From NCBI GenBank assembly GCA_021300155.1, contig JAJTID010000041.1:12608-76607 (forward strand): DNA of 64,000 nucleotides. The letters run 5' to 3'. The notes under the pieces were generated by a model. The model made no database searches, was not told the origin of the DNA, and saw nothing but the letters and a program-made list of their open reading frames with translations. A program made the translations under genes and the position numbers. Below are positions 5,320 to 26,692 of the stretch, piece after piece. The number at the start of each line of letters is the position of its first letter. Within the stretch, counting starts at the first letter, position 1. The stretch is from Pirellula sp. (GTDB lineage Bacteria > Planctomycetota > Planctomycetia > Pirellulales > Pirellulaceae).

Positions 5320-7554
5320 TCAATATTGTTCAGGAATGGGATCCAACGCGATAATATACTTCGTTCGGAGTAGTTCGATATCCTGCGAGGAAAACTGCCC
5401 CTGCGACAAGCGAATGTTGCAACGCGGAGGTAAGGGGCAATTCAAGATCCCTTTGACTGTCACAGCCGTATTCGACAAATCGATCGAGTAGACATTCGGC
5501 TTCAATTTTTCTAGTCCGATATCGGTCAGGGCTGTGTCCGAGAGATTAAGGGTGCCAAATACCGTCGGCAGGGAGCCAACGTTCTCATCAACCAGGCCAG
5601 ATCCTTTCATACTAAGAAAACTGAGGTTCTGCTGCCAATCTCGGAAACATGCGCCGGTAAATTGCTTTCCAGTCAGCGACAGATCATACAAACTAGTCGC
5701 ATTTACGAGGAAATCCGAGATACCTTTGTCGGTAAAATTGCCATCCCCGAGCTCCAGCCTGTAGATATTGGTACCAAAATTGACAAGATAAGAATCTGTC
5801 AATTGTGTGTTCTTTAGAATCAACTTTGTCGAATTCTGGAACTGTAGGAGTGCCGGAGAAAACGAGCTGTCGGTAAGCGGGCAGCCGTCTAGGATCAATT
5901 CATTTACTTGCATTATTTGGCTGAATGCACGACTGAATTCGCTCCCGTCGATAGGATTTCCCGACACATCTAGCTTCTGGTAGTGCCCTCCCCCTAAACG
6001 TAAGAAGTCGGCGAGCCCTTTGTCGGTAATTTGATTACGTGACAAGTTCAGTGAACGGTATCGCAGCATAACGACACTGAGATCTTCGTCCTTGAGTCCG
6101 AGGTTGCTCAAATCGATCGACCTGAGGCGATGGTAAACCAATGTCTGTCCTGAGCCGAGAAGACGAAGGATCGATTCTGGTGTCAAAGGATTACCCGCGA
6201 TCGACAAATGAACCAAGCTAGGATATCTCCATGTGAAGTTGAGTTCATTCAACTGTGACTCGTTTAGACCCGTGTTGCTCAGATCTAACGAACTTAGATT
6301 AGGGTATCGAGCGAGCATCGCCGAAAAATCTTGAGGAAGCGGTCCACCTGACAGCGAGATTTTCTTAATCTTGAGTTTGGGCTCAAAACTCTCAAGCAAC
6401 CTCCGATCTGCATTGGGAGCGAAGACTAGACTGACCACTTCTCGATTTCGCGTCTCAATCGCAACACCTTGTTCTCCAAGCGAGTGTCGCAGCGCTGCAA
6501 GACTTTGATCAACATTCTTGCGGTGAGTTCGGATCGCAACAATGGTGAAACTTAAAACCAGTGTGATTATCGCAAATAGCGCAGTCCAACGGAAATGAAC
6601 GCTTTGAAAGAACCGTTGAGTCGGCTCGAACTCTTCAACATCCTTCAAGGGGACATGCAATTTCGCGGTTGCACTCTTTGGTTCGTACCGTTGCAATACA
6701 AAGCCGATTCGCCGCAGCAAGATAAGTGCCAATGTAAAAATCGAACACGCGAAAACGCTCGGTAGAAGAATAAACACAAAGTTCGACGGCATAGAGTATG
6801 TATAAATGATGGCAAGTACTAACGGAGCAAGCATACTTGCCAAGAAAGAAAGCACTCCGGCTGTCCAATAACTCTTGATGCGGAAAGCAAAGTAGGCCGA
6901 TGGCAACACGACCAATGCATTGAACGCCCCCCAAACAAGCCCTAAACCTGTTAGGGTTAAAATAGAAGAGAGTTCATTGCCATTTTCCAAGACTAGTCTT
7001 GGAGCCGTCGTCATCCAAAGGGCACATGCAACCGAAGTCATCAGCAGAAAGAAATCAACAACGACGAGTGGCTCACGCTTCGCTGTCGCTAAACCGAAGG
7101 AGAACCGCCAACCGAGCAAAAAGCGTGTAAGGTAGAGCGGAAGTGAACAAACTATGACAATCCACGGGACCACAAATGCGATGCACAACGCACTGAACGG
7201 TTCTTGATCCAAAGTGATGCCGAAAATGAAAAAGCTTGAGCCGCTACTTCCGATGCTCATTCCCATTAAACTCAGACCAGCAAAAAGTACAAATCCCAAA
7301 ACACCTGCGAATAGACCTGCAAGCCAAGACTTCCCTACCAAGCCAGCAACACTAGCGATCGCTGCAAGATGAGTAATGAACCACGTAGGAATAAGAATTC
7401 CATCCCACCACAAACCGAAACCGCCGATCATGCTGTACAAACATGGCACGAAGAAATCGATGATCGCGGCAAAAACAACTAACGCGATATAGGCCGAACG
7501 AGAAATCGATTTAAGGGAAAGAGTTTCCGATGCCTGAACTTTAGACTTAATCAT
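5320..7554 (-). CDS. Polytopic membrane protein with C-terminal leucine-rich repeats
   Basis: About 10 hydrophobic segments in the N-terminal ~340 aa, then repeated LxxLxLSxT/NxxxD units (LSSLDLSNTGL, LRSIDLSNLGL, LNLSRNQITD, LNLSDTALTD). Confidence 0.75.
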   Translation of the reverse strand: MIKSKVQASETLSLKSISRSAYIALVVFAAIIDFFVPCLYSMIGGFGLWWDGILIPTWFITHLAAIASVAGLVGKSWLAGLFAGVLGFVLFAGLSLMGMSIGSSGSSFFIFGITLDQEPFSALCIAFVVPWIVIVCSLPLYLTRFLLGWRFSFGLATAKREPLVVVDFFLLMTSVACALWMTTAPRLVLENGNELSSILTLTGLGLVWGAFNALVVLPSAYFAFRIKSYWTAGVLSFLASMLAPLVLAIIYTYSMPSNFVFILLPSVFACSIFTLALILLRRIGFVLQRYEPKSATAKLHVPLKDVEEFEPTQRFFQSVHFRWTALFAIITLVLSFTIVAIRTHRKNVDQSLAALRHSLGEQGVAIETRNREVVSLVFAPNADRRLLESFEPKLKIKKISLSGGPLPQDFSAMLARYPNLSSLDLSNTGLNESQLNELNFTWRYPSLVHLSIAGNPLTPESILRLLGSGQTLVYHRLRSIDLSNLGLKDEDLSVVMLRYRSLNLSRNQITDKGLADFLRLGGGHYQKLDVSGNPIDGSEFSRAFSQIMQVNELILDGCPLTDSSFSPALLQFQNSTKLILKNTQLTDSYLVNFGTNIYRLELGDGNFTDKGISDFLVNATSLYDLSLTGKQFTGACFRDWQQNLSFLSMKGSGLVDENVGSLPTVFGTLNLSDTALTDIGLEKLKPNVYSIDLSNTAVTVKGILNCPLPPRCNIRLSQGQFSSQDIELLRTKYIIALDPIPEQY

Positions 7555-7592
7555 CTGCTTCCTCGTTGTGATCTGATTCTAATAGCGTCAAA

Positions 7593-10500
7593 TCAATGCT
7601 CAGGATCACCGATGGACATTGTTCCAGCCCAGAATTTTGGCAAGCTACCTGAGACTCGTTCCGCTGGCATTTGAAATCCTTGCAACGATGGTTCAGTACT
7701 GACATCGAATTCCTCAATCCATAAGTTCGCCACCGCTCGCTGCCAAGCGCGGGAGAACGTCGTCCCCTCCAAGCCATCCTGTAGTGATTGCAGTAGCGTG
7801 CAAGTGCTTTCACCGCCAACATGCCAACGCGTTACGACGATATGCCGAGTTCCTTGGCCAATCATGGATAAGCTCAATCGAAGCCACTCGTCCCCCGTTG
7901 TTGTCGATGGATCGAAAGTGCATTGAGCACCAAAAAACCATTGTTCTCTCGGCATCCCCCAAGGCAGTTGATTCCAGCCTGCCATCGTCGCGAAGCCAGG
8001 AGTCCGATCAATCCCTGTCACAAACGCATTAGGATCACTCCATGGATTCATCATCAACGAAACAACGCGGTCGGAAGCCAGTTTTGTATACCGGGCCGGC
8101 GGCAGGGACTGAGACGAAGTTACATCTACCGTTTGCGCTTTTGGAACAAGCGCAACGGTACGTTCCATCAACGAAGTCGCAGATGATTTCGCCTTGCCCC
8201 AGAACTCTGCGCTCTGCAGAACTAATGGACTAGAGGCCGCACTTGCACCGGGTTGAATAAGCTGCGGAATGCAACCAAGTGTCGGTGAGTAGCAGATCGC
8301 ATGATTGGAGATGGCAGCGACATAACCGCGTGCCGAATCCATCGGAAATAACTCCAATGGCATTTGCCAAAGGCTCTCATCTGGCACAATGATCCATCGT
8401 TCTTGGCGTTTCAAGACGTTCCAGACCTCATCTGGCAACAAAACCGATCGGAGTTCGACAATCAATTTTTTCAAATTGGGTTGGTCCACAGTTCCACCCG
8501 TTCCGATCGCAGCCAGCATCGCATTGAGTCCATTAAGCCAGCCGGATTTTTCGGCCACTTGCCATGATTGCATCCCTTGCGGAGTAACGATAAAACCGAC
8601 AACCGTTTTGTCTAAGACACCGAACATCACAACGGCATCGTTTGGTTGCATCGATTTGCGAAGTGCAGGAAGATCGAGTCTCGTCGGGAACGATGCTGGG
8701 ATAGCCAGGGGACCCGCGGAGGCAGCCCAGAGCAATGACTCTTGGGTGGTGCTCAATCGAATCAACGCATCCCACCGTTTACTTTCTTCTTCATTCCATC
8801 GGCGTGTATCCCACTGGGGAGATCTCTCAAACGGGTCGATCCACTCTCGCATCAAGCTTGCGTTTTGACTCAGCTTCGGAAGATTACGGCGTAAAGACTC
8901 TATCTCTTTTGCTTCGCGAGGCGACAGATTTGTTATGTCAGTGTGGATCGCACGGCGCAACTCAAACAATCGACCACCGAGAAGACTCGAACGTCGAAAA
9001 CGATATCCCGCCCATGCGTCCCATGCCAAAAGTTGCTCTTCAAAATCCGTCGATAACTGAACTGTTCGAAGATACGATTTCCAAACCTCTGATTTATCCG
9101 TAGTTTGGAATACGAGTTGTTCTAAGACATGAGTTCGCCATAGTCCTGGTCGATCTCGTTGCAACAAATCTCCCAGCACACGCCTGCCAATCTCAGGAGT
9201 GAGTTGCTTTCCCTCGACCAAACTATGGGCCAAGTTGAGTTGGTAGAGCAGCCTCGATCCTGTGTTTAGGGGCGTGGTGCCACGGAGATCGACTAACGAT
9301 TCTTCCAGTTTCTGAAGTCCCTGCGAATCATTCCCTTCCAAGAATGCAATGCGCGACTGAGAGTATGCGACTGAAGCCATCATTTTTGGCAACGATATTT
9401 GTTTAGGCAAAAGCATCGCTGTTGCGTTGCTCGCTTGTTTGCGTACGACTTCTGCATCACCGCGCAATGCCGCTTGGCGAACCACTTCTACTTGTGAGCG
9501 AATGGTGACTAAACGACTTCTTGCATTGGCCCACTTTGCGGTTTGTTGAAGCGTCTTACCTACCGCTGCGCCCTCCTTTTGATTTTGAAACGAGCACATC
9601 GACCATAGTTCTAAAGCCTCGTCAACATGATCTGCTTGTTCGGCCTTGGCTGCACTGAGGCTCGCTTCCAGCGCGAACTCCTCTGCACTAAGCATCTCGT
9701 TCGAATCGATAGCCATATCAGCCAAAGACAACAGAGCGATCGATGTCAATGCATGGTCGTGGCCACTACTGAGGGTCAAGTTCTTCTTTAGTGCCATCGC
9801 AGTCGTTGAGCGATTGGCAGTAGGGCTGCGCGCTAATGTGGAGCAAATCGAGAGGCCAACCCTCACCGGTTCATGCATTTGCGGCGCGTTGGGGACAACG
9901 AAGACTTGGGCAAGCAACGGGGTGACCGGATTATGTTCAACGAGTCCACCCATCAACTGGAGGCGTCGTCGAAGTGCAATCGCTTGGCAACGCAGTATTT
10001 CGGTAGCATCGATTGGAACTAGTTTTCCTTCGACTCCTCTCCCTGATTGTCGCTCTAACAACAAGTCGGTAGATCCCAATGCGATCGACCAGGGATCGGA
10101 ATAGGAAAGGAACGTCGCGTTTCGACTATTCGAAGCCCCCCAAGTTACGTCCTTTCCCTTCGATTCGACACGGTCGTTTGGTACTGGGTTGCTCATTAGC
10201 GAAATCCAACCCGAGCATTGAATCGAGATTGCTAGTGCGGATTCAAACTTATCCAAGGCGGCACCGATGTCCCCTTGCGTGAGCAAGCATTCACCCATCA
10301 TGACTAAGGGCGGAATACTATCGATTCCACGTTCTCCGTTCACTTGTCGAGATTGAGCGAGAGCTTGTTGAAATCCTTCGAATGCCTGCGAGGTCTGGGC
10401 ATCTTCGTAAAAATCAATCGAAGCGTAATACTCAGGGCGAATAAGATTGCTTGCAATGGTGCCCTTGCGAGGTGCCTTTGCGGTTTGAGCGAAACATGGT

Positions 10501-10613
10501 TCACAGAACAGGGTAATTAGGACACAGAATGCAATGGAAAGGAGGGGGAATCGAAGCGAGACCATAGGAAAGCAAACCAGCTCGGCAGATGAGAGAAAAC
10601 GAAATGCTGCCAT
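7593..10613 (-). CDS. Exported TPR-like / CHAT (caspase HetF associated with TPRs) domain protein
   Basis: N-terminal signal-like stretch and helical repeats. C-terminal CHAT hallmarks 'IIVPDESLWQMPLELF' and 'GQGTRHIVVTRWHVGGEST'. True start may be 10565. Confidence 0.7.
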   Translation of the reverse strand: MAAFRFLSSAELVCFPMVSLRFPLLSIAFCVLITLFCEPCFAQTAKAPRKGTIASNLIRPEYYASIDFYEDAQTSQAFEGFQQALAQSRQVNGERGIDSIPPLVMMGECLLTQGDIGAALDKFESALAISIQCSGWISLMSNPVPNDRVESKGKDVTWGASNSRNATFLSYSDPWSIALGSTDLLLERQSGRGVEGKLVPIDATEILRCQAIALRRRLQLMGGLVEHNPVTPLLAQVFVVPNAPQMHEPVRVGLSICSTLARSPTANRSTTAMALKKNLTLSSGHDHALTSIALLSLADMAIDSNEMLSAEEFALEASLSAAKAEQADHVDEALELWSMCSFQNQKEGAAVGKTLQQTAKWANARSRLVTIRSQVEVVRQAALRGDAEVVRKQASNATAMLLPKQISLPKMMASVAYSQSRIAFLEGNDSQGLQKLEESLVDLRGTTPLNTGSRLLYQLNLAHSLVEGKQLTPEIGRRVLGDLLQRDRPGLWRTHVLEQLVFQTTDKSEVWKSYLRTVQLSTDFEEQLLAWDAWAGYRFRRSSLLGGRLFELRRAIHTDITNLSPREAKEIESLRRNLPKLSQNASLMREWIDPFERSPQWDTRRWNEEESKRWDALIRLSTTQESLLWAASAGPLAIPASFPTRLDLPALRKSMQPNDAVVMFGVLDKTVVGFIVTPQGMQSWQVAEKSGWLNGLNAMLAAIGTGGTVDQPNLKKLIVELRSVLLPDEVWNVLKRQERWIIVPDESLWQMPLELFPMDSARGYVAAISNHAICYSPTLGCIPQLIQPGASAASSPLVLQSAEFWGKAKSSATSLMERTVALVPKAQTVDVTSSQSLPPARYTKLASDRVVSLMMNPWSDPNAFVTGIDRTPGFATMAGWNQLPWGMPREQWFFGAQCTFDPSTTTGDEWLRLSLSMIGQGTRHIVVTRWHVGGESTCTLLQSLQDGLEGTTFSRAWQRAVANLWIEEFDVSTEPSLQGFQMPAERVSGSLPKFWAGTMSIGDPEH

Positions 10614-10792
10614 TCATTATGGCCACAATCCAGCCTACGTCACCATGGACAAACCTAGAATCTGCAATACAACCCGCAGACTTTGCCTCAAGAGTGCGAT
10701 CCTATTTCCCGATACTACCATCAAGGAATAACACCCGAGCAACAAATCCATTGGTGCACAGTTTTTATCCCATCGCGGAGCTTAGGATTAAA

Positions 10793-11020
10793 ATGGCAAG
10801 AAAAAGCAACGACCTCAAAGTTTGGATGGCAGTTGCCGCATGTGTGGGATTATGCGGATTGAACACTGGATGCCAAGTTCACGTTGCTGGCCAAACGCTA
10901 CCTAGCCCATACTATCTAGATGACGATGTCCAGTACTTCCCTGCCGGGCCAGAGAACAAACTCGCAAACGAAACCGCTGCATTGAAGGCAGCCCGCGAAG
11001 AAGCTAAAGCTCGCCGCTAG
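10793..11020 (+). CDS. Small predicted lipoprotein (75 aa), function unknown
   Basis: ATG 10793 within the track ORF; basic N-terminus, hydrophobic stretch, lipobox-like 'NTGC', then 'GQTLPSPYYLDDDVQYFP'. Confidence 0.7.
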   Translation: MARKSNDLKVWMAVAACVGLCGLNTGCQVHVAGQTLPSPYYLDDDVQYFPAGPENKLANETAALKAAREEAKARR

Positions 11021-11323
11021 GCTTTGGTTTTCGCTCCGCCCCATCATGTAGCACATAAGACTGAAGCAGCACGGTGTGTGTTGGTTCAAAAAAATGCAAG
11101 TCGAGCGTTCGTTCGGGTGATTTCTAGGGACGATGAACAATCGAGGCAGGTTTGGGCCGGATGTTTCTCGGGTATGGAAAGATCGATTCACGCATGATTA
11201 GCGGTTGACGCTGGACTGGATCAACAACCAGCCTCGGAACGCAACAATCTAACTAGCCAATGCAACCGCTCGATCATCCGTTCGGTAGAGGCATCATCGA
11301 AAGTTAACATGAGCCGTCTAGGG

Positions 11324-13072
11324 CTAAGCCTCAATAGCGACGGATTCAGTGATGGGATGAGATTGACATGCAAGGATGAATCCGTCGTCCTCTTCTGCCT
11401 TTGAGAGTGCATCGCGGCTATCCATTCGTACTCGTCCAGTCGAGCAGCGGACTTTGCATTGTCCACAGATCCCTGCACGGCACTCCCAAGGCAACGCCAC
11501 ACCTGCCTGTTCTGCCGCTTCAAGAATAGTGGAGGAGGCTTCAATATCCACAGATTGACTTGATAACTCAAAGCTGACGATCGCAGATTGTACCTCTCCA
11601 GCATCACTTTCGGATTGGCCTTCGGAAAGACCTGCCGTAGTCTGTTCGAGGGCGTATGCGTTTCCTCTTGGCGAAACGAACTCTTCTGTTGAAATCTGTT
11701 CGTTGGGTACGCCCATAGAAATGATAGTCTTGAGAACAGCCTGCATCATTTGGTCTGGCCCGCAAAGAAAGATTGGGAGTTCTAGTAATTCAGGTACGAA
11801 AACACGTAAGTCGTCTGCGTTGATGTAGCCTGACTTCTCCAGCCATCTGTTTGATGGAATAGCAACATCATCTGACGGCTTGGACAGGCTGTAATAGGTG
11901 AGGACTTTCAAGTTATCAAACCGATTCGCCAAGTGAGAGAGTTCTGCATCGTAGATTAAATCGAATTTGGATCGAACCGCATTGATGAAGTAGATCTTTC
12001 CTCGCCATGAGCGATCTGTGAGATAGCGAAGGATCGACATCAATGGCGTGATTCCTACTCCACCTGCGATCAACACTACGCCTTGGGCTTGGTGGTCGTC
12101 AAAGAAGAATTTTCCTCCTGGTGCGCCGATGCGAATCTTGTCACCTACCTTCAATTCATCGTGCATGTAGCGGGAAACTAGGCCTTCGGGATTGCGTTTG
12201 ATAGTCAATTCCACATGACCACGTTGAGAAGGCGATGAAGCGATCGTATACAACCGTTTTACTGGATTTCCATGAACGTTGAGTGACACGGTCATGTACT
12301 GTCCAGGCCGATGGATGAATGGAACATCACCTTCTGGCAGGACAAACCGAAAGGTTTTCACATCATGGGTTTCCCGATGGATGTTTTGAACGGTTAGATA
12401 CCCATTCCAGGATTTTCGGTTCATCTCGGATTTGGCAGTTTGACGCGAATTCGACCTCGATGCCTCGCGTCGTAAGTCCAAATAGTGTTTTACGCTCCGA
12501 AATCCTAGAATCGGGGCGAGCACTGCGGCAAATGCAAGGGGCTGTCGTGCATCGCTTTTCACGAGCATGCAGTAGTGAACCACTCCCAAAATGGCTGCCA
12601 CGTACGCGAATCGATGAAGAAGCTTCCAACGGACTGGACCTAATCTGCGAATCATCGCATTCGTACTGGTAACTGCCAGCGGCAACATCGATGCGAGAGC
12701 GACAAATCCCACCAAGAGAAATCGACGCGATACGATCTCTTCGATCGCACTGCTAATATTCCCCATTCGATCAAATACGACATAGATCACGAAGTGAAGT
12801 GCGGCGTAGGCGAATCCGTATAGCCCAAGCGCTCGCCGGTAGGCGATGATACTGCTCCATCCAGTTAACGCTCGCAAGGGAGTAATGGCCAGCGTTATAA
12901 ATAAGAAGACAAGGGAAAGGATTCCTGTGATATGGAGAGCACTGTTGATACCATTTGCCCCCAGTTGATCGTGCCACGCATCCCACCAAAGCATTAGCAA
13001 TGGGCCAAGTCCAGCCAAGATGACAAGATTACGAAGGTAGTTGATGTTGTTCATCGAGCAGAGCATTTCCAT
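11324..13072 (-). CDS. msrQ: MsrQ-type heme-b membrane subunit fused to FAD/NAD(P)-binding FNR domain and C-terminal 2Fe-2S ferredoxin
   Basis: MsrQ motifs 'RRALGL..FAYAALHF', 'WKLLHRFAY', 'VVHY'. FNR motifs 'RLYTIASSP', 'IAGGVGITPLMS', 'CGP..MM', 'EEF'. Ferredoxin 'CRAGICGQC...LACQ'. TAATG overlap with msrP. Confidence 0.88.
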   Translation of the reverse strand: MEMLCSMNNINYLRNLVILAGLGPLLMLWWDAWHDQLGANGINSALHITGILSLVFLFITLAITPLRALTGWSSIIAYRRALGLYGFAYAALHFVIYVVFDRMGNISSAIEEIVSRRFLLVGFVALASMLPLAVTSTNAMIRRLGPVRWKLLHRFAYVAAILGVVHYCMLVKSDARQPLAFAAVLAPILGFRSVKHYLDLRREASRSNSRQTAKSEMNRKSWNGYLTVQNIHRETHDVKTFRFVLPEGDVPFIHRPGQYMTVSLNVHGNPVKRLYTIASSPSQRGHVELTIKRNPEGLVSRYMHDELKVGDKIRIGAPGGKFFFDDHQAQGVVLIAGGVGITPLMSILRYLTDRSWRGKIYFINAVRSKFDLIYDAELSHLANRFDNLKVLTYYSLSKPSDDVAIPSNRWLEKSGYINADDLRVFVPELLELPIFLCGPDQMMQAVLKTIISMGVPNEQISTEEFVSPRGNAYALEQTTAGLSEGQSESDAGEVQSAIVSFELSSQSVDIEASSTILEAAEQAGVALPWECRAGICGQCKVRCSTGRVRMDSRDALSKAEEDDGFILACQSHPITESVAIEA

Positions 13073-21688: not shown

Positions 21689-21730
21689 GATTGATGATGT
21701 TTTCTATTCGACCGATCAGCAGTTGACCGA

Positions 21731-24700
21731 TTAATTGACGATCGTAAATCCATAAAGCGGCGAACCCATGGTAGCGGATGAAGGAATGGTACGGTAACCA
21801 ACCGATTGCCAAAGTCTCGTATCGCTTTCGTGTTGTATCATATCGACCCAGGCTGCGATGGGATCGGACGTCCCCTCGACCACTTCGTGCGACGTCAAGT
21901 GACTTTCCAGGCGTCGCTCGCCAGCATGATACGTTCGCCTCGGATCGCGTAGCGGCAAGGAAGGTGTTTCGTTCCAACCCGAGGGCGGATCCCAATCGAA
22001 TAACCGGCCGGGATGCATCAAAACGCGTGCTCGAACCCTGCGATTCCCCTCGGGGCCTGTCCCAACGAAATGATGCACTCCATGCTCTTCGCCAAGCCAA
22101 TTGCCGATCCGACCATTGTCCATTTGCAACGCGATTCCCATCGTACCTTTGGGCAATTGGTCGAGCTCACACCATGAAGCCACACGGAAGACATCGATTT
22201 CCTTGACCCGATTCCGTTGCTCTATTTCTATCAGAAGCATATTCTCCGAAGAATTGCTTTCCACCGTACGAAGCAAACGAAATGCAGGTGAAAACTGGTC
22301 AGGAATCTCGATGCTCTTTCGGCTCGCAGCCTGCCTCTCCAAGAACTCTCTCGATAGAGGATCGTGCATCGAGTTGTAGTTCGCTAAACGGAATGGAAGC
22401 ACGCGCCATCCATTTAAGTCGGCCATCCGTCGATAAGCTTCCCATAGCGGTTTCGCGGCGGTGATCGGATTGCAAAGGATGATGACTGAATACATTTCCT
22501 TCACACTGACATCAAGGCGTTGCATGGAGATCAGATAGGTCTTCAATACTCCAGCAAGCTTGCGAGCTTCATCCGTCGTGTAGTCGACTTCCAACGATTG
22601 ATTCTGATACCAACTGCTAAAGACACGGCTCTGCAATCGTTCCACTTGCTCGACGATGGAAATAAACTCCGAAATCGACTTGGCGGTTTCTCCTTCTTCA
22701 CGACGCAGCAACTGTATCTGATAATTTACCCCCTGCTTCCGTCTCGCCGAGGTCAGTTTTTTGAGTCTGCGTTTGTTTCGATCAATTTGACGTCGAATAC
22801 GTTCCAGATCATTCTGAATCGAGTAAAACTGAGACGAATGCCGCAATAGCCTCGCTCGATATCCGAGATCTCGAACTTCTTCGATCGCACGATGTTGAGG
22901 AGCTTGGGACGAATCGCGTTTGCTCAATCGCTCCATCCTTACGTTCATCTCCAAACGCGATCGATCCGCCGAAGCATCAAACATAACATGCGGGACGGCA
23001 AGCTCGTTAGCGAGATGCATCGTGTCTGCAATCGGGATCGCAATATGCCTTTCCAACTCTCGCTTCAATGGACGAGCACCATAAGCAGGCTCATATCCAC
23101 CAGCAGCCAACGTATCGCGACCATCCAGAGTAATCGACCAATCTACGGTTCGGTACCTCAACCCGCTGCGCGTCGCAAGCTTATCGAGTTCACGATCCAC
23201 GATCTTGCGAACGACCACCGGTGCAAGCGGCTGATACGGAATAATCTGATCAATACGACCGAGGAACTCTGGCCGAACGAACCGCTTGACCTCGCGAAGA
23301 AAATGTTCATTCGCTCGCACCGACTGGGAATCGAAACCAAGCGATCTTCCGTGAAAACTCTCGACTCCCAAGTTGCTCGTCAAGAGGATGACCGCGTTGC
23401 GGAAGTCTGCGATTCGTCCCATCGAATCGGTCAATCTCCCTTCGCCGAGCACCTGCAGGAGCAGATCCAATACCGATGCGTGGGACTTTTCAAACTCGTC
23501 CAACAATACCACGGAGAACGGTTGATCTCGAATCGGGCTCGTCAATGTTCCGTCCCCACCATTATTCACACCGATCATTCGTGCCCCCGACCAGGGGTGA
23601 GCATACTCGCTCATGTCGATGCGAATCATTCGACTTGGGTCACGATAAAGCAGTTTTGCTAGGGCTTTCGCTGTCTCGGTCTTGCCAACTCCAGTGGGCC
23701 CAATCAACAACAACGATGCCAGCGGCCGATCGATGCGGTTCATGCGTGCCTTTAATACGGTCATCAACTCTACAACGCGCCGAATCGGTTCCGGCTGTCC
23801 GATCACATCGGACTCCAGTTGGGTTCGTATCTCTTCTTCCTGGAATCGCACGGAATCATCGAGCAAGAACAACGGCAACCCGGTATCTTGAGAGAATCGT
23901 TTCGATACAGCAACACGATCGATCGACCCCTCGGATTCCCACGTCTCTAACATGCTTTGCAACATGGAGAGAGGTTGCCCCGGCATCGACGAGTATGTCG
24001 CAAATCGCAAGTGCAATCGAATCAATTCGTCCGTCGCGGAGTCTTCCCAGCGAATGCGATGCACTTTCGAAAGTCGCTCGGCGCACCTCGACAAAATCTT
24101 CTTTGCTTTCTCAACACTCGGTACTGCGACATCGATACGAGCAAAACTACGGAGTAGCAGAGGTTCTTCCCTTTGAATAATAGTGATTTGCTCTGGCGTG
24201 CACTCGAGTATTGAAACTAACTCTCCACTCTCCAGCGAATTGCGCAGATGCGCGGCGACTCCCGGTTGTCCATTAATCTTCCCCGACTCCAGTAGCTCAA
24301 CCGCAGAGCCTAAGTGCAACAAAATCTTCGCCTGTCTCGCCTCTTTTACGACATCGAGACATCGCTGCTGCCACATCCCGAATCCCGAAGCACCAGAAAC
24401 TAATCGAGCACCATTTGTCGTCCATACGTCGAGAATTGCGGCATCTGACGGATGTGGTCGATGCGCGAACTGTCTAGCCCACTCAAAAACGATAGCTGAC
24501 TTGCCTACCCCTGGTGGCCCGACCAATAAAACGTTGGAAGGTTTCTCTCCCAGCAATTGTTCATTCAATCGCTCCACATAATCGTCGTATTCGAAGACAT
24601 GGTGTCCACGCCAACGCGCAATCGGCGTTCCAACCGATCGCATTGTTTTCAAACTCGGACCTTTCTTCTTCAACTTTCGCAATTGATACTTTTCGGCAAT

Positions 24701-25318
24701 ATCCGTAACCGACAAATCGGTGACTTTGCGGACTTCCAACGAACGATCACAGAAAGCGTCCCGCACTTCGCTCAGTGTCAGATCATCAAACTGCCGGGAT
24801 AGGATGCCTCTTAATTGGCTTTGCAGATGGGTATCGCTTACTTCCAATTTCTCCGTCAAAAAGGAGGCATTTAGATTGGGCACATACCAATGAAAATGCT
24901 TCGGCGAAATCGGCCAACAGAAAAGCGAGATGGAAACGGTGATGCCTTCATCCCATCCGATCATTCGCTCTGGCGGATTGATTGAGAGGGCCACCTTTCT
25001 TTCTCGCGGTTTGTTTCTTGGACAAGCCCCTAACCAACGCGAGGGCCGAACCTTCTTCAAATGCTGATGCCACTTCGAAGTCAGCAGAACTTTTGCCTGC
25101 TGCCAATTGCTGGTAACCACTTCCATCGACAGAGGCGGCAACAACTTTGCACGACAGAGCTCTGATTCATGCTGTTCGACCAAAGCAAAAAGAGAGATTC
25201 GCCGTTCGTGAGCCATGGGCAGCCGGGTCAATTCACCGTAACTTGAAGGAACTTGTTCAGAGGATTCTTTCGTGTCATGACGCAATAAAACGATGTCTCG
25301 AGAAACGACATTGTACAC
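21731..25318 (-). CDS. Clp/Hsp100 two-NBD AAA+ ATPase (ClpA/C-like) with atypical N-domain and release-factor-like C-terminal extension
   Basis: Walker A 'GPPGVGKS' and 'GPTGVGKT'; 'RIDMSEY', 'LLDEFEKSH', 'GRLTD', 'SNLG..SLGF', 'PEFLGRID', 'YGARPLKR'. Start may be 25216. Confidence 0.85.
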   Translation of the reverse strand: MYNVVSRDIVLLRHDTKESSEQVPSSYGELTRLPMAHERRISLFALVEQHESELCRAKLLPPLSMEVVTSNWQQAKVLLTSKWHQHLKKVRPSRWLGACPRNKPRERKVALSINPPERMIGWDEGITVSISLFCWPISPKHFHWYVPNLNASFLTEKLEVSDTHLQSQLRGILSRQFDDLTLSEVRDAFCDRSLEVRKVTDLSVTDIAEKYQLRKLKKKGPSLKTMRSVGTPIARWRGHHVFEYDDYVERLNEQLLGEKPSNVLLVGPPGVGKSAIVFEWARQFAHRPHPSDAAILDVWTTNGARLVSGASGFGMWQQRCLDVVKEARQAKILLHLGSAVELLESGKINGQPGVAAHLRNSLESGELVSILECTPEQITIIQREEPLLLRSFARIDVAVPSVEKAKKILSRCAERLSKVHRIRWEDSATDELIRLHLRFATYSSMPGQPLSMLQSMLETWESEGSIDRVAVSKRFSQDTGLPLFLLDDSVRFQEEEIRTQLESDVIGQPEPIRRVVELMTVLKARMNRIDRPLASLLLIGPTGVGKTETAKALAKLLYRDPSRMIRIDMSEYAHPWSGARMIGVNNGGDGTLTSPIRDQPFSVVLLDEFEKSHASVLDLLLQVLGEGRLTDSMGRIADFRNAVILLTSNLGVESFHGRSLGFDSQSVRANEHFLREVKRFVRPEFLGRIDQIIPYQPLAPVVVRKIVDRELDKLATRSGLRYRTVDWSITLDGRDTLAAGGYEPAYGARPLKRELERHIAIPIADTMHLANELAVPHVMFDASADRSRLEMNVRMERLSKRDSSQAPQHRAIEEVRDLGYRARLLRHSSQFYSIQNDLERIRRQIDRNKRRLKKLTSARRKQGVNYQIQLLRREEGETAKSISEFISIVEQVERLQSRVFSSWYQNQSLEVDYTTDEARKLAGVLKTYLISMQRLDVSVKEMYSVIILCNPITAAKPLWEAYRRMADLNGWRVLPFRLANYNSMHDPLSREFLERQAASRKSIEIPDQFSPAFRLLRTVESNSSENMLLIEIEQRNRVKEIDVFRVASWCELDQLPKGTMGIALQMDNGRIGNWLGEEHGVHHFVGTGPEGNRRVRARVLMHPGRLFDWDPPSGWNETPSLPLRDPRRTYHAGERRLESHLTSHEVVEGTSDPIAAWVDMIQHESDTRLWQSVGYRTIPSSATMGSPLYGFTIVN

Positions 25319-25510
25319 TAACCAATGGTTCGGAGGTTACTCTTTGATAGGCGAAATCTAGTCACCGACGAGTTGATCAACCATAGAGATAAGCTCACTG
25401 ACTGGATTCGCTTCACCAAGTTGAATGGAAATGAAACGATTCCATCGCTGAGCCTCGCATTTCGGGTTCAGCTGAAGACTTTCAATGGTGGCGTCTCTTG
25501 GTCGACGGAC

Positions 25511-26692
25511 TTAATTAGAACCCAACAGCCATGCTTCAGTAAACTCGGAGTGCTTCATGCTTTTTCCTTCGGGAACAAAGTAACTGTAGACAGCATGAAT
25601 CCTACCGTCTTTCCCTTGAGTCATGGCCGGATAATGGAAAGAGCCGCCAGGTTGATTCTCAAGGGAGCGAGTCCATTTCCAGCTCTTTCCTTCATCGTCC
25701 GACAACGACACCACCAAGCTCGATCGCCCTTCTTCAGTATCGTTGTAAACCAAGGCCCATTTGCCACTTGAAAGTCGTAAAGCATCGACGCCGGAGCCAG
25801 GATTCGGAAGCGACGTCGAATAGACATCACCCCACGTCTCCCCTCGATCGACGGACTCGCACGCTTGTATTTTTCCAGTGACTCCATTCTCTCGCATGTA
25901 AGCTATGAGACTCCCGTCTGCACGCTCTAGAACTGCAGGCTGAATGTTACCAAACCCGATCAGAGGCTCGCTTGCTTTCCATGTCACACCAGAGTCATCG
26001 CTATATGCCATCAACGAAATTGAATAGGTGTCAGTATAAAGTGGCAATAGAATGCGTCCATTCTTCAATACAGTCGGCTTGCATCTCGGTTGCCAACCTA
26101 GCCGTTGATAAAGTTTGTCATCCAATCGCGACTTCAATAGAGCGACGACTTCTTTTTGCTTGTCTGTAAGTGGCACGTTTGCTTTTGCCAGAAACTGTTC
26201 AAGCTTGATCTTGGCTGATGGTCCAAAGTCTTTAGGCTTGAGAAACAAAACATCCCTTCGTTTCCATACCGGTGCTCCGTCCGATGTGTAGTCCTCGGAA
26301 ACTAAAGCGTTGGTCAAGCAAGACTCCCAAGTGTTTGCAATGATCACCGGCCAGAATAGCCATAGCCGATTTGAAGAGTCGATCATCATGCAAGTATTGC
26401 AATCAGGGAAATCTGGAGTGTCGACCATCAAAAAGGGCTCTGACCACTTCGACTCTCCTTTCTTTTTGCGACTTCCCAATACCACAACATCATCGGCTTT
26501 GCGTTCGCCTGATCCGCGATACCAAGAGGTCAATAAATCGCCGTTTGGCAATTCGACGATACCTGGCGCATGATTGTGATTGGCATCCAATGGAAAAACC
26601 AATTCAGCGGAATACTGGGTTTGAAACGCTGTGGCCAAAAATACACAGCACATGGAGAAGAAAGAAAACACAGTACGAAGAACTCCGATCAA
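25511..26692 (-). CDS. BNR-repeat (sialidase-like) beta-propeller protein, exported
   Basis: Asp-boxes 'YSDDSGVTW', 'SVDRGETW', 'SDDEGKSW'; 'NPGSG', 'FHYP'. Confidence 0.85.
   Translation of the reverse strand: MIGVLRTVFSFFSMCCVFLATAFQTQYSAELVFPLDANHNHAPGIVELPNGDLLTSWYRGSGERKADDVVVLGSRKKKGESKWSEPFLMVDTPDFPDCNTCMMIDSSNRLWLFWPVIIANTWESCLTNALVSEDYTSDGAPVWKRRDVLFLKPKDFGPSAKIKLEQFLAKANVPLTDKQKEVVALLKSRLDDKLYQRLGWQPRCKPTVLKNGRILLPLYTDTYSISLMAYSDDSGVTWKASEPLIGFGNIQPAVLERADGSLIAYMRENGVTGKIQACESVDRGETWGDVYSTSLPNPGSGVDALRLSSGKWALVYNDTEEGRSSLVVSLSDDEGKSWKWTRSLENQPGGSFHYPAMTQGKDGRIHAVYSYFVPEGKSMKHSEFTEAWLLGSN

Follow-up and report, generated by a model that had tools for sequence, protein, structure and literature searches.

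The stretch of DNA considered here, a window of 64,000 nucleotides from a Pirellula sp. (Planctomycetota; contig JAJTID010000041.1), carries a gene, here called P1, for a Clp/Hsp100-type ATPase whose C-terminal part (the tail) resembles a class-I release factor (RF). A reading made from the letters of the window (the sequence-only reading) had described the product as a ClpA-like unfoldase fused to an RF-like module lacking the GGQ motif, had pointed to a coiled coil followed by three RF-like motifs, and had suggested a ribosome-rescue or nascent-chain quality-control machine, or else a translation-targeting defence effector. The open reading frame (ORF) and the three motifs are all present (the motifs at residues 958, 1073 and 1127), and GGQ is found nowhere in the protein. 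The longest ORF (21731..25318, minus strand) covers 1195 amino acids from a GTG at 25318; the start is probably the ATG at 25216, because all nine full-length homologues (9/9) begin at the residue that is M35 of the 1195-residue version (MAHERRISLF...). Residue numbers follow this longer version throughout (i.e. counting from the GTG at 25318), and the features are collected in Table 1.

Judging by sequence comparison and predicted structure, the last ~330 residues of P1 descend from a class-I RF, closest to RF2, with domains 1, 2 and 4 in order. Three independent lines of evidence agree on this origin, i.e. pairwise BLASTP, modelling with AlphaFold2 (AF2) followed by Foldseek, and profile-profile alignment. 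When the tail was compared by BLASTP with RF1 of the same genome, AKPLWEAYRRMADLNGWRV aligned with ARDLYDMYKRYADLRGWKV (E 6e-5 for the pair). The AF2 model of residues 800-1195 (predicted local distance difference test, pLDDT, 78; predicted template modelling score, pTM, 0.68) was compared with the PDB, where the top 49 Foldseek matches are all class-I RFs (RF2, RF1, mtRF1, mtRF1a and PrfH), led by chain 7 of 6ost (E 2.7e-7, probability 1.0), and where the alignments span ~400 columns of full-length RFs. Against RF1 chains without domain 1 the template modelling score (TM) is 0.43-0.46, with ~90 of the ~250 residues of those chains belonging to domain 3 and being unmatched in the query. For the profile-profile comparison (hhalign), a 54-sequence tail profile was set against 31 planctomycete RFs taken from genomes. 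With RF1 and RF2 mixed, this resulted in three colinear local matches, located at the same three motifs (best Prob 85.5%, E 5.7e-6); with RF2 alone, in one long alignment of tail profile positions 41-311 with RF2 11-209 (Prob 80%, E 1.4e-5); and with RF1 alone, in an alignment of positions 327-372 with RF1 303-352 (E 5e-4), which is colinear with the one to RF2. The RF resemblance proposed from the motifs therefore goes beyond chance, as the BLASTP match, the colinearity of the motifs on RF1/RF2 and the Foldseek ranking indicate, and the structural claim of an AAA+ motor tethered to an RF-derived fold without the GGQ domain is upheld on the same comparisons. The two checks that had been proposed for it, against RF profiles and by structure prediction, both came out in favour of RFs, though Pfam PCRF and RF-1 are silent.

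In fact, the tail alone gave no match to Pfam PCRF or RF-1 at E values up to 10, no NCBIfam or PADLOC model gave an RF-like or otherwise diagnostic match on either the tail or the N-terminus, and phmmer and an 11-sequence profile retrieved only coiled-coil noise from the PDB sequences. A shallow tail profile was likewise insignificant against RFs (Prob 9%), significance being reached only with 54 sequences. Searching 1.84 billion representatives with the tail profile (hmmsearch) returned 60 proteins, all related to the same Clp fusions or fragments of them, with no RFs and no clear stand-alone tails among them. A PCRF search of the whole genome found prfA and prfB only; a 557-residue frame elsewhere (L003, G000:C154:16775-17053) matched PCRF weakly and below threshold (E 0.047, over positions 3-92 of the model) and is probably a coiled coil.

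RF1 and RF2 (PrfA and PrfB; Pfam PCRF, PF03462, and RF-1, PF00472) consist of a helical domain 1 followed by the domain 2/4 superdomain, into which a ~90-residue catalytic domain 3 with the GGQ motif is inserted. The tail of P1 follows this layout and carries the scaffold motifs of RF1/RF2 (Y..A..GW, E.G.H.F and RR.Y) in the same sequence; it differs in lying below the Pfam thresholds and in being fused C-terminally to a two-ring AAA+ ATPase. The supposed coiled coil (about 838-937) corresponds to RF domain 1 in the alignments, with moderate support, since helices are easy to align. Near-invariant in the 54 sequences are Y962, E1078, G1080, H1082, F1084, R1127, R1128 and Y1130, with no variation at all at E1078 and G1080, and the conserved arginines of the tail are R1094, R1096, R1127 and R1128. 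An equation of the invariant Glu with the site of the RF2 E167K specificity mutant was dropped, since its position relative to SPF says that it is not residue 167.

On alignment, domain 3 (the peptidyl-tRNA hydrolase domain with GGQ) has been cut out of the tail and a linker of 15 amino acids stands in its place. The bounds of this linker follow from the point where the RF2 alignment stops (RF2 209) and the point where the RF1 alignment resumes (RF1 303), and residues 320-325 of the tail AF2 model, in the linker region, have a low pLDDT. The elements with which RF1 and RF2 read stop codons are, in the same alignments, all unconserved: the GxxE tip of helix alpha5, the reader of U1 of the stop codon, reads CNPITAAK in P1; the 54 sequences differ from one another in the length and the sequence of the loop at the PxT/SPF position (1086-1093); and the position of the stacking His of the RF 'HTS' is mostly Arg, and also Ser or Thr. 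Also unlike RF1 and RF2, the tail has an insertion of 77 amino acids in domain 2, which lacks a counterpart in them, is mostly confident in the AF2 model, contains family-invariant residues (D986, S989, P1011, F1013-R1014-L1015, K1039, D1042-V1043 and R1045; i.e. PxFRLL and KxxDVxR) and may be a family-specific interface. Finally, the helical part of the tail is basic (residues 800-940, isoelectric point (pI) 10.3), in contrast to the acidic RF1 of the same genome (pI 5.0 for its domain 1 and 5.3 overall).

For the motor sites, P1 was compared by alignment with PDB chains and with ClpB and ClpC of the same genome; the sites were then checked in 32 full-length relatives. Residues ~247-770 form a two-ring core like that of ClpA, ClpB and ClpC (Pfam AAA_2, 9.9e-39; ClpB_D2-small, 2.5e-12), which scores 4.7e-90 with the NCBIfam ClpB model and 1.1e-84 with the ClpA model. 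The score against the ClpA model, 285 bits, is far under its equivalog cut-off of 993, and that against ClpB is likewise far under its own. The closest PDB chains by sequence are ClpB, ClpC and ClpA, P1 aligning to ClpA residues 195-723. Unlike ClpB/Hsp104, P1 lacks the coiled-coil M-domain in its first AAA+ module (D1): when P1 is aligned with ClpB of the same genome, the entire M-domain falls in a gap. With ClpA and ClpC it shares the two AAA+ modules without M-domain, the Walker A and B motifs and the sensor and arginine motifs of the second module (D2), the D2-small domain, and a hydrophobic-Gly-Phe/Leu loop at the position of the ClpA IGL loop. In the alignments, the LGF of this loop falls on the IGL of 5ofo, a ClpB-ClpA loop chimera, and on the FGF of ClpC from the same genome, while the ClpB of that genome has nothing there; the motif, xG(F/L), is kept in all 32 relatives, and it is the one feature on which a putative docking to ClpP would rest.

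P1 departs from ClpA and ClpC in having lost the Asp-Glu of the D1 Walker B motif, the pore-loop Tyr of D1 and the GYVG loop of D2, in its N-terminal domain, and in being accompanied by two paralogues (P2 and P3, see below). The 'IDEL' of ClpB and ClpC has become H(L/V)G(S/N) in P1 and in all 32 relatives, and at the D1 pore-loop position P1 has SGF instead of KYR. Both changes in D1 recur in the 32 relatives. D1 is probably able to bind ATP, because its Walker A motif is intact, but not to hydrolyse it. The five residues deleted from D2 (YVGYE) are missing from P1, P2, P3 and all relatives checked. The term 'ClpA-like' is therefore right for the two-ring architecture, to judge from these alignments, whereas 'unfoldase' overstates what is established, given the loss of the D1 Walker B Asp-Glu and the deletion of the aromatic pore loop of D2.

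The N-terminal domain, which is common to P1, P2 and P3, is basic (pI 9.75) and is not Clp_N; the N-terminal 250 amino acids of P1 were without any match in a Pfam search. Its AF2 model, built from 14 sequences, those of the P2 and P3 N-termini among them, is confident (pLDDT 84, pTM 0.74), and a comparison of this model with the PDB and BFVD yielded nothing significant (best E 0.045 and 0.025, respectively; none <0.02), so that P1 carries a domain of unmatched fold in place of Clp_N. The RNA-triphosphatase tunnel fold of giant viruses, which recurs among the insignificant top matches, was rejected (TM ~0.14).

Table 1. Features of P1 and location of its paralogues. Coordinates are those of the window unless a contig is given; residues are numbered from the GTG at 25318.
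Feature	Coordinates	Strand	Residues	Remarks
P1 gene	21731..25216	(-)		1161-amino-acid Clp/Hsp100-type ATPase with RF-like tail
N-terminal domain	24623..25216	(-)	35-232	alpha/beta fold
AAA+ module D1	23909..24622	(-)	233-470	alignments to ClpB, ClpC, ClpA
D1 Walker A GPPGVGKS	24497-24520	(-)		intact
D1 Walker B position ILLHLGS	24305-24325	(-)		stands for hhhhDE; Asp-Glu lost
AAA+ module D2 and D2-small	22949..23908	(-)	471-790	Pfam AAA_2, ClpB_D2-small
D2 Walker A GPTGVGKT	23678-23701	(-)		present
D2 pore-loop deletion	23549-23575	(-)		5 residues gone, GYVGY loop removed
D2 Walker B LLDEFE	23489-23512	(-)		intact
LGF tripeptide in D2	23333-23341	(-)		at position of the ClpP-docking IGL loop of ClpA
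RF domain-1-like helical region	22508..22807	(-)	838-937	hhalign against RF2; long helices in AF2
RF domain 2, first part	22373..22507	(-)	938-982	strand, then alpha5-like helix with LWEAYRRMADLNGWRV
Insertion in RF domain 2	22142..22372	(-)	983-1059	77 amino acids; gap in hhalign RF2 alignment
RF domain 2, second part	21995..22141	(-)	1060-1108	GIALQ...NWLGEEHGVHHF...RRVRARV; hhalign Prob 85.5%, E 5.7e-6
Linker replacing GGQ domain 3	21950..21994	(-)	1109-1123	15 residues, WDPPSGWNETPSLPL
RF domain-4-like part	21812..21949	(-)	1124-1169	RDPRRTYHAGERRLESHLT, then helix; hhalign against RF1
C-terminal end and stop codon	21731..21811	(-)	1170-1195	low AF2 confidence
P2 and P3	G000:C91 (L059) 9043-12474 and 6666-9035	(-)		

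A survey of the architecture and its neighbours showed that P1 does not stand by itself as a fusion: it is one of three strictly co-occurring Clp paralogues (P1, P2 and P3) that make up a soluble system, none of the three having a membrane segment (maximum hydropathy <1.5). In homologues of ~50% identity, P2 (Clp-like, ~1130-1145 amino acids) lies within a few bases 3' of P1, and where the locus extends far enough, at L040 and L043, P3 (~765 amino acids) comes third; at L042 a trypsin/PDZ protease gene comes after P2. The P1-P2(-P3) genes are in tandem and translationally coupled at L040, L042 and L043, and also at L075, in the named species Neorhodopirellula pilleata, whose deposited genome assembly has the same three-gene cluster (WP_146576101.1 and two downstream genes). 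In the Pirellula genome P1 stands alone, with P2 (1143 amino acids) and P3 (789 amino acids) side by side on another contig, which ends 594 bp upstream of P2. This separation is genuine, since the neighbours of P1 recur in independent assemblies whose P1 is 93% and 83% identical, i.e. Dabb upstream and racemase-like, DUF6807, dehydrogenase and MFS genes downstream. P1 was found in five of the 37 species of the genus, and P2 accompanies it in all four other carriers (4/4) and in none of six non-carriers (0/6). P2 and P3 share with P1 the dead D1 Walker B motif, the D2 pore-loop deletion and an xG(F/Y) loop, and have kept the D1 pore-loop Tyr. P2 is similar in size to P1 and has a different or degenerate tail, for which no RF module is claimed on the alignments made, and P3 is without a tail. 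A dedicated ClpP paralogue was considered and ruled out, as two ClpP genes are present in 10 of the 11 genomes tested, carriers and non-carriers alike. One non-carrier of the genus has a third, divergent ClpP-like gene (G421:C1:1591130-1591585, E 4.8e-26), the others having clpP1-clpP2 only.

For the neighbours of P1 in the window (racemase-like, DUF6807, dehydrogenase, MFS, BNR and rhomboid genes) a functional link to P1 was not found. The racemase-like gene heads a translationally coupled operon of four genes (racemase-like, DUF6807, dehydrogenase and MFS), and the 42 nt between it and the P1 stop (21689-21730) hold no terminator-like hairpin. Co-transcription of P1 with this operon is possible, because of the missing terminator and because the adjacency is kept at 93% and 83% identity. 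Upstream of P1, an ORF of 148 amino acids without Pfam match (25325-25771, plus strand) extends into the 3' end of the BNR-repeat gene (25511-26692, minus strand), and in close relatives a divergent Dabb (PF07876) gene is located at this place; the upstream neighbourhood of P1 may differ from that of its relatives here, or the 148-residue ORF may be spurious.

Following these results, it is tentatively proposed, with somewhat less than an even chance of being right, that P1 is a subunit of a soluble three-paralogue Clp/Hsp100-type ATPase system whose RF-like tail docks the ATPase on the ribosome. The tail would be unable to read stop codons or release peptides and would act as a docking module, placing the ATPase at the RF-binding site, i.e. 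at the A site/decoding centre of the ribosome or of the small subunit. By analogy with RF2 recruited by ArfA, such docking would be independent of stop codons, and precedents for this use of the RF fold are found among the Foldseek matches of the tail themselves: in ArfA-RF2, BrfA-RF2 and PrfH on damaged ribosomes (5mdw, 5mgp, 5u9f, 6szs and 9mor) an RF-fold protein occupies the A site while no stop codon is read. These factors keep GGQ and release the peptide, whereas P1 has no catalytic domain and has an ATPase attached. P1, P2 and P3 would probably form one mixed ring, in which D1 binds ATP without hydrolysing it and leaves D2 as the sole motor; the ClpA/ClpC-like xGF loops may dock this ring on the housekeeping ClpP1P2 peptidase, and the ribosome-bound target would then be remodelled or degraded. 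As the aromatic pore loop of D2 is missing, it is unlikely that the motor operates as a standard processive polypeptide translocase. The basic character of the helical part of the tail and of the N-terminal domain, compared with the acidic RF1 of the same genome, is compatible with contact to RNA.

Several observations weigh against ribosome docking. All decoding contacts have been lost and domain 2 contains the insert of 77 amino acids, so that a fit in the A site is not assured, and the whole-chain TM-scores of the tail are low (0.2-0.3), which is expected because RFs are flexible multidomain proteins. The tail of P2 is insignificant both against RFs and against the tail of P1, and no ribosomal or translation genes were linked to the cluster in any context read. 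The spread is also patchy, with five of the 37 species of the genus and a clear match in one of the 401 sampled genomes of the phylum (the source genome itself), whereas a wider spread would be expected of a core quality-control factor. As for ClpP, the tripeptide is the single motif that speaks for docking, the carriers have no extra ClpP, and a ClpP partner without the D2 pore-loop tyrosines would be unusual. A bolder version of the proposal, in which P1-P2-P3 is an ATP-driven machine that docks in the A site and there pulls out, splits or degrades translation complexes that have stalled or are unwanted, is unlikely, if still to be reckoned with. The RF body without its catalytic arm would be the key, and the mixed Clp ring, possibly coupled to ClpP, would do the work. 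If true, bacteria would have a counterpart of Vms1-Cdc48 or Pelota-ABCE1 in fused form, driven by an unconventional motor without pore loops.

The loss of the decoding elements can also be understood if the tail has turned into a general RNA-binding or ribonucleoprotein-binding domain that works away from the A site, with the ATPase remodelling or clearing some RNA-protein complex. The model for this is plant PrfB3, an RF2 relative without SPF and GGQ that binds the petB 3' untranslated region (PMC5897788) and thereby provides a precedent for an RF2 homologue without either motif in an RNA-binding job; the basic helical part and N-terminal domain, as well as the conserved arginines of the tail, fit it too. 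The tail has nevertheless kept domain 1, which in RFs contacts the ribosome and the GTPase centre, together with domains 2/4, and genes of RNA metabolism are not linked, which makes this explanation a distinctly unlikely one. Slightly better placed, though still rather improbable, is the possibility that an old RF fold now serves protein-protein contacts (e.g. the binding of substrates or adaptors, the assembly of the three paralogues into a ring, or autoinhibition of the ATPase) with no link to translation or RNA. Divergence has gone so far that Pfam, NCBIfam and hidden Markov model searches miss RFs, the family-specific insert and the conserved linker could make new interfaces, and the paralogues have either a tail of similar length without detectable RF signal (P2) or none (P3). 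On the other hand, the invariant residues are exactly RF scaffold motifs (E.G.H.F and RR.Y), and the preservation of the three-domain RF layout minus domain 3 suggests that the overall shape still matters.

The very patchy occurrence of the cluster within one genus, and its self-contained nature without conserved neighbours, would also be expected of an accessory conflict or defence system, in which a trigger (e.g. a phage) causes the tail to take the ATPase, with or without ClpP, to ribosomes in order to shut translation down. PADLOC gave matches to PDC-M37B and DolB on the AAA_2 part, but these cover the generic D2 ATPase domain only and there was no full-length match. Defence or mobile-element genes were not recognised in the contexts read and none was consistently linked, and in this clade P1 adjoins a metabolic operon, a position kept at 93% and 83% identity; a defence role therefore has only a small chance of being correct.

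Bacteria rescue stalled ribosomes with tmRNA, ArfA/RF2, ArfB, RqcH and HflX-type factors, and we know of no AAA+ unfoldase that is aimed at the ribosome through an RF fold. Full-text literature searches found no description of this Clp-RF fusion, and the main survey of RF evolution, which follows the hydrolase domain, does not mention it in its passages on AAA+, Clp, Planctomycetes and the codon-recognition domain (PMC6514570). A functional analogy, and no more than that, is offered by eukaryotic ribosome quality control, where Vms1/ANKZF1 with Cdc48/p97 brings an RF-related module and an AAA+ unfoldase together on stalled complexes (PMC6514570). Vms1 has an unrelated archaeo-eukaryotic fold of the eRF1 type, is regarded as catalytically active, and associates with Cdc48 without a covalent link, whereas in P1 a bacterial-type RF without catalytic domain is fused to the ATPase. 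PrfB3 resembles the tail of P1 as an RF2 homologue that has lost SPF and GGQ and has a job outside termination, and differs from P1 in being a stand-alone chloroplast protein that stabilises petB mRNA, with no ATPase (PMC5897788).

If the tail docks on ribosomes, P1 would represent a new class of ribosome-directed ATPase, and would also be a natural case in which the RF decoding superdomain functions in the absence of the inserted hydrolase domain. Such a superdomain without hydrolase domain bears on the evolutionary assembly of RFs (PMC6514570). The combination of a silent D1 ring, no D2 pore-loop tyrosines and a kept ClpP-type loop is, in turn, a challenge to the standard picture of how Clp rings engage their substrates. 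With the cluster being present in Neorhodopirellula pilleata, experiments would be feasible if the strain is obtainable.

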